Shown here: one piece after another, positions 37,122 through 60,537 of the stretch
How the letters are laid out: each line of letters begins with the position of its first letter
Numbering within the stretch: the first letter of the stretch is position 1
DNA from: Eledone cirrhosa
Lineage: Eukaryota
Direction of reading: 5' to 3'
Assembly: GCA_964016885.1 (NCBI GenBank)
Contig: CAXHJY010000109.1
Location: 237,713 to 301,712 of the forward strand
Length of the DNA stretch: 64,000 nt
Notes under the pieces: model-generated
Told to the model about the DNA's origin: nothing
Databases searched by the model: none
Seen by the model: the letters and a program-made list of their open reading frames with translations, nothing else
Translations under genes and position numbers: made by a program

Positions 37122-37450
37122 ATCATCATTTTACGTCCGCTTTTCCCTGCTTGCAAGAGTGGAACGGGAACTGATTCTGGCTTGATTTCTACAGCTGGAT
37201 GCCCTTCCTAACACCAACCTCATCTACAGTGAGTGGTGGGTGCTTTTTTGCCGTGGCACCTCCACGACCACTTTGCAGTGGAATGATAGGGACCCCAGTC
37301 CCTATCATCTCATTTCTACAGCTGAGTAAACTGGAGCCAATGTGAAATAAAGTGTCTTGCTCAAGGAAACAACACATCACCCAGTCTGAGAATTGAACTC
37401 ACAACCTTTCGATTGCAAGGCCAATGCTCTAACCACTAAGCCATGTGCCT

Positions 37451-56332: not shown

Positions 56333-57036
56333 AAGGCAATTCCATTGCATGCATGTGTGAATATATATATAAATTGTTTGCTATTAAGTGTTTTTGTGTT
56401 GCATTCTTACAATATGGTCGAAATATTCTCTAAGATATGTCGACAATACATATGTCATTTAAATAACTTGGAGAGAGTGCCATTGATACTGTTACTGGTA
56501 ACACTTCAGTTGTATATATATAGATATATTGTCCCACTTGAGGCAAGATTGGTCGTCTCGCTCGTATAGGACTGTCTGGCAGGTTTTCTACAACTGCATG
56601 CCTTTCCTAACACCAACCACATTTACAGTGTGGACTGGACGGTTTTTACCTACCGTGTTACCTACACGGCCACATTACAGCGTGGATTGTGTGTTTTTTT
56701 TGTTGTCGTGAGACTTACACAACCTCATTTATTTGGCACTGGATGTTGTGGTACCAACATAACTTTACAGAGAAAGGGGTGATGTTGATGGGGGTGGGGT
56801 AGGGGTAGTGGGATAGGGGTATATATTTGATTAAGAGATGCCTACTGACTGTAGGTTTCACTTTGTACATAGGCAAGGCGGGTCTTCTACATTACTGCGT
56901 AGCGCCAAAGATCTCAGTCCAGTGACATTGTCTTAGAGAGGTGTAAGTGTGTAAGGTTGGAATTTATCAATCTGTCCCAGGTTTTTCTGGGTTGCCTACT
57001 CCGCAATTTCCATGAATGTTGATTACCCTGCACTGC

Positions 57037-57075
<39 letters not shown>

Positions 57076-57078
<3 letters not shown>

Positions 57079-57996
57079 ATGTATACGTACATACATATAT
57101 GTATACAGACGTACAGTAGTATGTATATATATTACCGTGTAGGCAACACGGTAAAAACCTCCCAGACCCACACTGTAAATGTGGTTGGTGTTAGGAAGGG
57201 CATCCAACTGTAGAAAACCTGCCAGACAGTCCTATGCGAGCAAGACAATCACTCTTGCCTCAAGTGGGACTACCCCCGTCCAAACCCATGCAAGCGTGGA
57301 ACACGGACGTTAAACGTTGATGATGATGATGATGATGATGATATATACATACATGCACACATATATACATGTACGTATGGATTCACTGAACATTTATTAT
57401 AATGCTTGGTGTGTTTGTAAACAAACATCCTGAATTAAGCCGTACAGTGTCTAGCAACCATCGTTGCTCATTTGTTCAACACTGACAAAGGAACGCTGTA
57501 CTAGTTTCAAGCTTATTAGCTATCGTCAGCAACGTATACCTTCCTGCCAGATGGTTGAACGTCTGAAAGTATATACTTTCCTTATGCATATTAACGGCTG
57601 AGCAGCCTAATTTGCATATCGAGTGAGTTAATCGGCCGGGGTACCGAAAACGATAAACGGAAAAAATGAAACAAAATTTCATTTGTCACTCTTAGTACGG
57701 CTGTTACTTAAATATAAGTATGTATACGTACATACATATATGTATACAGACGTACAGTAGTATGTATATATATATATATATATATACATGCACACATATA
57801 TACATGTACGTATGGATTCACCGAACATTTATTATAATGCTCGGTGTATTTGTAAACAAACATCCCGAATTAAGCCGTACAGTGTCTAGCAACCATCGTT
57901 GCTCATTTGTTCAACACTGACAAAGGAACGCTAATAAGCTTGAAACTAGTACAGCGTTCCTTTGTCAGTGTTGAATAAATGAGTGGCGATGGTTGT
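57076..57996 (-). mobile_element. Non-autonomous hammerhead-containing element: partial tandem (435-bp period) plus terminal inverted segment
   Basis: 57351-57497 repeats at 57786-57932 (offset 435), and 57076-57130 repeats at about 57716-57770. 57930-57996 is an inverted copy of about 57455-57520. A SINE 3' fragment (57135-57342) interrupts the left copy. Confidence 0.65.
57493..57535 (-). ncRNA. Minimal type I hammerhead ribozyme motif
   Basis: Minus strand reads ACGTTG-CTGACGA-TAGCT AATA AGCTT-GAA-ACTAGT-A^CAGCGT. This gives a 6-bp stem I (one G-U), a 4-bp stem II after a U.U, palindromic ACTAGT stem III and a GUA triplet. Confidence 0.75.
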
Positions 57997-58979
57997 ACCA
58001 CCTTTCCTTAAATCTATTAGCAGTTGTACCAATATATCTATAAAACACATTACTTGTTTTTACTTTGCATTCATAAACAATATTATCCTCAAAACAGTTA
58101 TTATTCATTGGACAAATATTACTGTTTCTACTGTTGCAGTTATTTATGTTACCACTAGTATTTCCCTCTCTGTGTCGGTAAGTTTATCTCATCTATGTTA
58201 ATGGTGTTATCCCTGTTATTCGTTAGACAAGTAACGCTGTCTTTCTTGTTTAATATTATAATAAAACTCCAGATAAACATAAACTGTTGAGTGCTTGACA
58301 TCAGTTATGAAAAGGTCGGCAGATTTTCAATGAACCAACTTTCTTTAAGTGAATAAATAAATAAATATATATATGTATGTATGTGTGTGTGAAAATTAAA
58401 ATTTCAAATTCTTTATCAGAAAAATGTTTAAACACACACACATACACATGCAGAAATATATAAAAATATACATATACAATATAAAAAGCTAATTTTTACT
58501 TTCAATTGATAAAAAGCACTCAATATATTTTTCCTGTGTCAAACAACAAAAGAATGCAAATCAGTAAAGATACAGTTTGTCCCTGACACATATTTTACTC
58601 CAGTTTTGCACTTAACTGCAATTAATTCATATTTCTAACATCCAGAAAAACCCTCACACTTATCTCCTTCTCTTTCTCCGTCTCTTTCTCCTCCTTTTCT
58701 TTCTTTTCTTTCTCTTCTTTTTCTTCTTTCTCCTATTTCTCTTTCTCTCCTTTTTAAAGTCTTTTTTTATTGTTCAATATTTTTAACATTATCATTTTTC
58801 TTTGAAAAAGCTTTTTAGAAATACTTTCAAAAAATTATTATTATTATTATTATTATTATTATCATTATTATCATTGTTATTTGTTGTTGTTTAATTATAT
58901 TTTTCAATAATTCATTCTTCCCCCCTCTCCACCCACTCTCCCTTTGCACTCCTCTTGACCTCTTGTGTCTCACATTTCT

Positions 58980-60537
58980 CTCTCTCTCTCTCTATCTCTT
59001 TCTCTCTTTCCTATCTCCCTTATCCTCTCTTTCCCTCTATCTCTTTCTCTCTTTCCTATCTCCCTTATCCTCTCTCTCCCTCTATCTCTTTCTCTCTTTC
59101 CTATCTCCCTTATCCTCTCTCTCTCTCTATCTCTTTCTCTCTTTCCTATCTCCCTTATCCTCTCTCTCCCTCTATCTCTTTCTCTCTTTCCTATCTCCCT
59201 TATCCTCTCTCTCCCTCTATCTCTTTCTCTCTTTCCTATCTCCCTTATCCTCTCTCTCCCTCTATCTCTTTCTCTCTTTCCTATCTCCCTTATCCTCTCT
59301 CTCTCTCTATCTCTTTCTCTCTTTCCTATCTCCCTTATCCTCTCTCTCTCTCTCTATCTCTTTCTCTCTTTCCTATCTCCCTTATCCTCTCTCTCTCTCT
59401 ATCTCTTTCTCTCTTTCCTATCTCCCTTATCCTCTCTCTCCCTCTATCTCTTTCTCTCTTTCCTATCTCCCTTATCCTCTCTCTCTCTCTATCTCTTTCT
59501 CTCTTTCCTATCTCCCTTATCCTCTCTCTCTCTCTCTATCTCTTTCTCTCTTTCCTATCTCCCTTATCCTCTCTCTCTCTCTCTATCTCTTTCTCCTATC
59601 TCCCTTATCCTCTCTCTCCCTCTATCTCTTTCTCTCTTTCCTATCTCCCTTATCCTCTCTCTCCCTCTATCTCTTTCTCTCTTTCCTATCTCCCTTATCC
59701 TCTCTCTCTCTCTATCTCTTTCTCTCTTTCCTATCTCCCTTATCCTCTCTCTCCCTCTATCTCTTTCTCTCTTTCCTATCTCCCTTATCCTCTCTCTCCC
59801 TCTATCTCTTTCTCTCTTTCCTATCTCCCTTATCCTCTCTCTCCCTATATCTCTTTCTCTCTTTCCTATCTCCCTTATCCTCTCTCTCTCTCTATCTCTT
59901 TCTCTCTTTCCTATCTCCCTTATCCTCTCTCTCCCTCTATCTCTTTCTCTCTTTCCTATCTCCCTTATCCTCTCTCTCCCTCTATCTCTTTCTCTCTTTC
60001 CTATCTCCCTTATCCTCTCTCTCTCTCTATCTCTTTCTCTCTTTCCTATCTCCCTTATCCTCTCTCTCTCTCTATCCCTTTCTCTCTTTCCTATCTCCCT
60101 TATCCTCTCTCTCCCTCTATCTCTTTCTCTCTTTCCTATCTCCCTTATCCTCTCTCTCTCTCTATCTCTTTCTCTCTTTCCTATCTCCCTTATCCTCTCT
60201 CTCTCTCTCTATCTCTTTCTCTCTTTCCTATCTCCCTTATCCTCTCTCTCTCTCTATCTCTTTCTCTCTTTCCTATCTCCCTTATCCTCTCTATCTCTTT
60301 CTCTCTCTCCTATCTCCCTTATCCTCTCTCTCTCTCTATCTCTTTCTCTCTTTCCTATCTCCCTTATCCTCTCTCTCTCTCTCTTAACCTCTCTCCTTCT
60401 ACCTCTATTTCTTTCTCTCTTATCCTCTCTCCTTCTACCTCTATTTCTTTCTCTCTTATCCTCTCTCCTTCTACCTCTATTTCTTTCTCTCTTATCCTCT
60501 CTCCTTCTACCTCTATTTCTTTCTCTCTTATCCTCTC
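58980..60537. repeat. 45-bp polypyrimidine minisatellite followed by a 39-bp x4 repeat
   Basis: CTATCTCTTTCTCTCTTTCCTATCTCCCTTATCCTCTCTCTCCCT, about 30 copies; essentially no G on the + strand. Confidence 0.9.

Follow-up and report, generated by a model that had tools for sequence, protein, structure and literature searches.

The window, a stretch of 64,000 nt from the genome of Eledone cirrhosa (contig CAXHJY010000109.1), holds one copy of a dispersed repeat whose 435-nt unit is read on the minus strand. Segments 57341-57497 and 57776-57932 are direct copies at a spacing of 435 (157 nt, 96.8% identical, 5 differences), as described in the initial annotation. RNA bases are counted here from the predicted ribozyme cut, with 57498 as r1 and 57932 or 57497 as r2. 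The long arm (57341-57932, minus strand) comprises 1.36 contiguous units, or 1.5 units with the piece left of a SINE-like insertion, and contains a cut-to-cut monomer (57499-57932, minus strand) that is non-coding, multi-hairpin and present in 434 of its 435 nt, the first base being absent. The 3'-terminal piece of this arm (57076-57132, minus strand), identical to 57717-57773, stops at the first of the two fixed ends of the family (equivalent to 57709-57717; class r~225) and abuts a (TA)17 microsatellite (57041-57074, no strand), the presumed target site. At its other end, the long arm meets head to head an inverted-arm remnant (57930-57975, plus strand), which corresponds to 57520-57475, is identical to the direct copy at 46 of 46 positions, and has neither a fixed end nor a (TA)n. 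The joint is a GCT microhomology (57930-57932, no strand), already recognized between the two copies in the earlier reading.

The long arm is interrupted by an unrelated 208-nt repeat with a (GAT)n tail (57133-57340, plus strand), foreign to the unit and missing from its intact copy. We take this repeat to be SINE-like from its form alone; it presumably landed later, in the internal (TA)n of the unit, and has 10 other partial matches within the window. Two of its copies, 56531-56669 and 57133-57340, lie in opposite orientations 460 nt apart. Elsewhere in the window, a weak tRNA-like match (37382-37445, minus strand; 29.9 bits) is possibly the head of a tRNA-derived repeat, and a CT-rich tandem array of >30 units of 45 bp occupies about 58900-60400.

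No coding capacity emerges from the repeated unit, in agreement with the initial annotation: the longest stop-free run in its six frames is 74 aa, four unit peptides gave nothing below E 0.08 against Pfam, and an RT + GIY-YIG open reading frame is absent from it. Outside the microsatellites, 128 of its 318 positions are G or C (under 45%).

The inverted copy begins in the 5' strand of hammerhead stem II (57520 equivalent), where it had been placed before, but only its inner 46 nt belong to the inverted arm. In an apparent alignment of 66 nt, all four differences fall in the outer 20 nt. This outer segment (57976-57995) shares 16 of its 20 bases with the unit and recurs letter for letter in five copies of an older repeat (L243, L245, L246, L254 and L259). 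Thus, the outer 20 nt are the older repeat's own sequence and the inverted arm measures 46 nt, not 66. Another RNA template as the source of the four differences is ruled out, since they belong to the older repeat. The fragment of the latter (57976-58222, minus strand) carries a GIY-YIG-like frame and meets the inverted arm through the 16-of-20 microhomology. Among 418 candidates for its family, 40 further matches reach 76-84%, and most matches to this endonuclease-like repeat start at one point, equivalent to 58222. The frame matches a PLE endonuclease frame by tblastn (E 0.001) and gives no match in Pfam. In three copies of the older family, a (TA)n lies 640-730 nt beyond the fragment. The element probably inserted into that (TA)n, and a microhomology deletion would then have taken the rest of the arm together with the tail of the older repeat. 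The letters of the inverted arm could also derive from the first cDNA folding back on itself, with an identical outcome.

The type I hammerhead motif (57493-57535, minus strand) has an intact core, and its predicted cleavage site, 57499|57498 on the minus strand, is precisely the one first proposed. Stem I has 6 bp and stem II 4 bp with a closing U.U mismatch, stem III is a 6-nt palindrome, and the core reads CUGACGA/GAAA/UA. Hammerhead positions follow the customary numbering. Rfam hammerhead models gave no match at the gathering threshold or at E up to 10, and the motif was established by hand and by covariation. Over ∼160 passes (L001, L003 and L015 dropped), the core columns are 91-100% conserved, with the minimum at the free position 7. 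An extended stem I with internal loops surrounds the hammerhead (57474-57560, minus strand); over 14 hand-picked variants, 96% of its cells are paired, 6 cells are changed on both sides and 0 of 500 shuffles equal this figure, which is inflated by kinship among the variants. Stems II and III are invariant in these variants and hence uninformative for covariation. A second family in the genome has the same hammerhead architecture with different letters in all three stems.

The monomer folds at -145.6 kcal/mol (z -9.47), 0 of 100 shuffles being as good, with part of this stability contributed by a TA-rich hairpin. In the predicted circle, stems I and II form and stem III does not; the palindrome of stem III is predicted to pair between two copies at -4.8 kcal/mol. 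Metazoan hammerheads acting as dimers are described in PMC4209133, and in the active axolotl HHR_Amex2 the base of stem II likewise carries a U.U (PMC7229834). On these predictions, the hammerhead of the unit would cleave its RNA. The conserved type I hammerhead, the tandem arrays and the strong structure (z -9.5) bear out the earlier description as a retrozyme-like non-coding unit. The locus is a damaged, ordinary copy of a real retrozyme-type element.

The family is abundant. A 22-mer beside the cut has 12,296 exact matches in the 3.0-Gb assembly, compared with 0 for the reversed pattern, and a stem I variant pattern has 16,623, some of them in the same copies as the 22-mer set. Insertion ends were read from the first 100 22-mer matches by position, which gave 84 loci and, after 15 overlapping ones were dropped, 69, a local duplicate inside L074 being counted twice. 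Among 107 arms, 42 stop exactly at r281 (57653) and 36 at r225 (57709), that is 78 of 107 at either. The 3' ends are thus fixed at two sites, which lie 225 and 281 nt beyond the cut and 56 nt from each other. The segment between them (57653-57709, minus strand), called here the 56-nt tail, would be bounded by reverse-transcription start sites. Nearly all of the 36 and 42 fixed ends are followed by (TA)n; inspection by eye showed exceptions such as L111, which has no repeat there, and L078, where the repeat is (AC)n. The two ends are also strictly paired. The 69 loci yielded 31 head-to-head pairs, 24 with one end of each kind, 0 with the same end twice and 7 with one or both ends elsewhere; for 24 of 24, the pairing of unlike ends has a p of 1e-7. 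As (TA)n lies at both sides of the insertions, any target-site duplication is masked. Monomers measure 412-454 nt within the subfamily, with up to 15 hammerheads per arm.

Related repeats occur alongside. A diverged subfamily (L192-L197, L204-L206 and L228-L233) is ∼78% identical, with units of 464-538 nt and a longer internal microsatellite, and shows paired changes both in stem I and in the r90-113 hairpin. A second hammerhead repeat family (L020, L075, L092, L102 and L196-L197) has units of 310-312 nt that are 99-100% identical within arrays and arranged in head-to-head arms, whose ends fall near r139 and at r160-170, within (TA)n.

The initial annotation attached particular weight to the 5' end of the long arm, at 57932 (equivalent to 57497), one base short of the cut. 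As a position this holds; the exact stop is ambiguous, because GCT 57930-57932 fits both arms and the true stop lies 1-4 bases before the cut. The explanation offered was template switching by a reverse transcriptase that had reached the 5' terminus of a linear RNA cut by the ribozyme, which would make the end a marker of the cleavage site. It draws on this proximity and on the identical joint at two other loci, L128 and L131; a partly cleaved multimer could also yield such an end in a single copy. At the family level, the 5' ends speak against it and we regard it as very unlikely. Plotted along the unit, the truncation points of the 80 arms holding the 22-mer are scattered, amounting to 0.28% per base (80 ends over an exposure of 28,200 nt), and their hazard shows no clear unevenness across 15 bins (p 0.06). 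Within nine positions around the cut, 1 end is found against 2.8 expected, together with 110 read-throughs, placing ends there at no more than ∼5% of crossings. Genome-wide, patterns demanding a departure after r1 or r2 have 11 and 26 matches, of which 8 and 15 are true arm ends (L123 assigned by eye), compared with 11.5 and 15.5 expected from a flat rate; the remaining matches are small indels or substitutions. The long arm of the window itself had already crossed one intact cut site.

The joint points in the same direction. L128 and L131 are chromosomal, independent insertions with other flanks and complete second arms; L128 as a duplicate of the window locus is ruled out, as flanks and subfamily differ. 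Of 13 inverted joints at r2, 8 fall by eye at one of the unit's seven GCT sites, 5 of them at GCT sites other than the one used in the window, at L128 and at L131, which argues against run-off at the cut. The GCT joint reflects microhomology, not cleavage, and the window's stop beside the cut is a coincidence at chance level. For the window copy taken alone, run-off at the cut site is possible, yet unremarkable.

What served as template has to be read from the arms. Copying begins at r225 or r281 and crosses r1, so a linear cut-to-cut monomer is not the usual template. Of 80 arms, 50 exceed one unit, 9 exceed two and 4 exceed three, in a sample that was selected for the 22-mer and hence favours longer arms. 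Alleles at 19 polymorphic sites (L113 omitted) agree in 92% of comparisons both within an arm (825 of 892) and between opposite arms (530 of 575), and in 66% between loci; divergence is correspondingly 2.0%, 2.8% and 5.4%. Two long arrays carry hammerheads on both arms, 7 + 9 (16) in L222 and 3 + 15 (18) in L223; their internal divergence is 0.3%, and the nearest array differs by 0.6-0.7%. A single rare variant occurs in all 15 monomers of L223, on both arms, and nine rare variants in 6 of 6 of L224. Such near-identical units on both arms fit repeated copying of one monomer; arms drawn from one subfamily at one time would likewise agree. Other arrays are mixed: in L071/L227, 8 variants occur in only 2 of the 4-5 units and internal divergence is 3.3%, the haplotype changes between units in L098, and L073 is also mixed. 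Among shared variants, an excess of A>G (8 versus 1 T>C, p 0.02) suggested RNA editing, a signature that was rejected when it was not repeated in long arrays (6 versus 3, p 0.5).

On balance, an RNA circle is the rather probable template. The same Penelope-type insertion could start from an uncleaved linear multimer, or proceed by repeated template jumps, with the hammerhead slow or acting elsewhere and the circle unneeded. Several observations lend this a certain plausibility: uncleaved RNA is the dominant substrate of an anole PLE in vitro (PMC11167929, in the part available), 8 of 9 Xenopus dimers did not cleave according to the accessible text of 10.64898/2026.07.22.740005, stem III is predicted not to form in the monomer, arrays of donor length exist, and haplotypes change inside L098 and L073. 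It is nevertheless unlikely, given that both arms of young arrays have near-identical units with rare variants in common, that 5' truncation at 0.28% per base would shorten arrays in every round unless they regrew, and that the hammerhead core is almost invariant while stem I covaries. Far less credible still is an origin at the DNA level, as a minisatellite or an assembly fold-back produced by slippage, recombination or mis-assembly. The window does belong to a 302-kb unplaced contig, no contig from four public runs spans the locus, and subsets of units sharing variants suggest some later duplication. Against this, the copies are dispersed in their thousands and end in (TA)n at two fixed 3' positions, one to each arm, and an identical joint recurs in different surroundings at two loci on chromosomes.

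The enzyme was sought among GIY-YIG candidates, of which the genome holds 10,596; 150 were scored. Intact RT + GIY-YIG frames are present, and Penelope-type frames with both matches include L160:3809-6622 (minus strand, 938 aa), L161:2488-5019 (plus strand, 844 aa), L162:2275-5562 (plus strand, 1096 aa) and L163:3722-5629 (minus strand, 636 aa). These long frames belong to several families, some copies being 95-98% alike. In the L163 family, a hammerhead whose style matches that of the unit lies 385 nt past the stop. In 40 GIY-YIG loci (blastn at word sizes 7 and 9; 8 frames by tblastn), no sequence common to the unit and an autonomous partner was found, so that the Penelope assignment rests on the anatomy of the insertions, which makes insertion by a borrowed Penelope-type enzyme likely. 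Incidental insertions of the unit were seen in L170, L171 and L175. The L176 family was rejected as a partner, the shared end words being too short to count.

Hammerhead-like motifs accompany other elements as well. In the PLE 3' region of L176:2500-3700 (minus strand), L177 and L258, a motif recognized by eye has U3/A8 in place of C3/G8; its stem II contains a U.U, and its stem III is a palindrome. This type of variant is reported for Schistosoma PLEs in PMC4209133. A further motif (L006, L019, L100, L115, L127 and L162) has a longer stem II with a G-C pair at its base and unrelated flanks.

Collectively, a picture of insertion can be drawn in which a non-coding 435-nt repeat is pasted into (TA)n by a borrowed Penelope-type RT/endonuclease copying a predicted circular RNA monomer, the window copy being partly deleted; we consider it probable. 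Tandem copies would be transcribed, their hammerheads would cleave in dimers paired by way of the stem III palindrome, and ligation of the monomer would follow. The genomic footprint is that insertions sit in (TA)n and have their 3' ends fixed at r225 and r281; both DNA ends of the break would prime on the RNA, one per site, through a few A/T bases. Copying, seen in the genome to cross the cut and to stop at scattered positions (∼0.28% per base), may travel round the circle, and the two copies would join head to head by a short microhomology, GCT in the present case. At the window locus, a later microhomology deletion may have fused the second arm to the older repeat, and another repeat may have entered the internal (TA)n. 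Tentatively, and with less confidence than in the general picture, each insertion may be a record of rolling-circle, double-ended target-primed reverse transcription, with a pair of Penelope enzymes engaged on one ribozyme-made circle of 435 nt at two sites 56 nt apart, for up to 15 or more turns.

That Penelope enzymes copy retrozyme circles into tandem cDNA has been proposed, not demonstrated, as far as the accessible portions of PMC7229834, PMC4209133 and 10.64898/2026.07.22.740005 go. If true, the rolling-circle, double-ended mechanism would fill in how animal retrozymes integrate, a step so far unshown, and would mark the 56-nt segment, with 57653-57709 as the candidate RNA, as a cis signal by which RNA circles are written into genomes. 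The significance sits at the level of the family, whose thousands of copies, with their start sites, strict one-per-arm pairing, target and multi-turn arms, form a record of how such RNAs insert; the locus itself is ordinary.

Among known systems, plant LTR retrozymes differ by a type III hammerhead in two LTRs, whereas the present unit is type I and tandem. The literature, in partial coverage, holds no description of this 435-nt family or of retrozyme insertion ends. The closest counterparts include the metazoan non-LTR retrozymes of coral, mussel and axolotl (Cervera and de la Pena 2020, PMC7229834; Li, Clavereau and Pollet 2026, 10.64898/2026.07.22.740005). In the parts available from these sources, they likewise have a non-coding tandem unit of a few hundred bases with low GC, one type I hammerhead per unit and thousands of copies; in axolotl, HHR_Amex1 has a similarly short palindromic stem III and HHR_Amex2 the U.U at the base of stem II. 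The units of 412-454 nt lie at the upper end of their 150-450 range, and the insertion anatomy (two fixed 3' ends, head-to-head arms and (TA)n target) is not among the features described there. Judged by its sequence, with a predicted hammerhead, the element fits non-LTR retrozymes in every tested feature.

The insertion anatomy has its likeness in the endonuclease-bearing PLEs. In these elements (PMC8557442, PMC3846280), a partial tandem lies beside an inverted copy that is truncated at the 5' side, only one of the ends bears a tail, and the targets are microsatellites. A microhomology at the 5' joint is likewise a shared feature of these PLEs, among them the anole Poseidon PAc (PMC11167929; on PLE hammerheads, PMC4209133). 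PLEs differ, to the extent that these texts describe them, in that the present unit has neither an RT nor an endonuclease frame, its tail measures 56 nt versus 30-40, its arrays reach 15 or more units, and no sequence link to an autonomous family was found. In a characterised PLE, the hammerhead is dispensable for insertion, according to the available part of PMC11167929. The same text describes in Poseidon PAc two internal start sites 3' of the hammerhead that define the tail, as the fixed ends do here. A further likeness is offered by Chlamys elements such as MRC1, which are non-autonomous and PLE-type, with multicopy head-to-tail insertions (PMC8557442).
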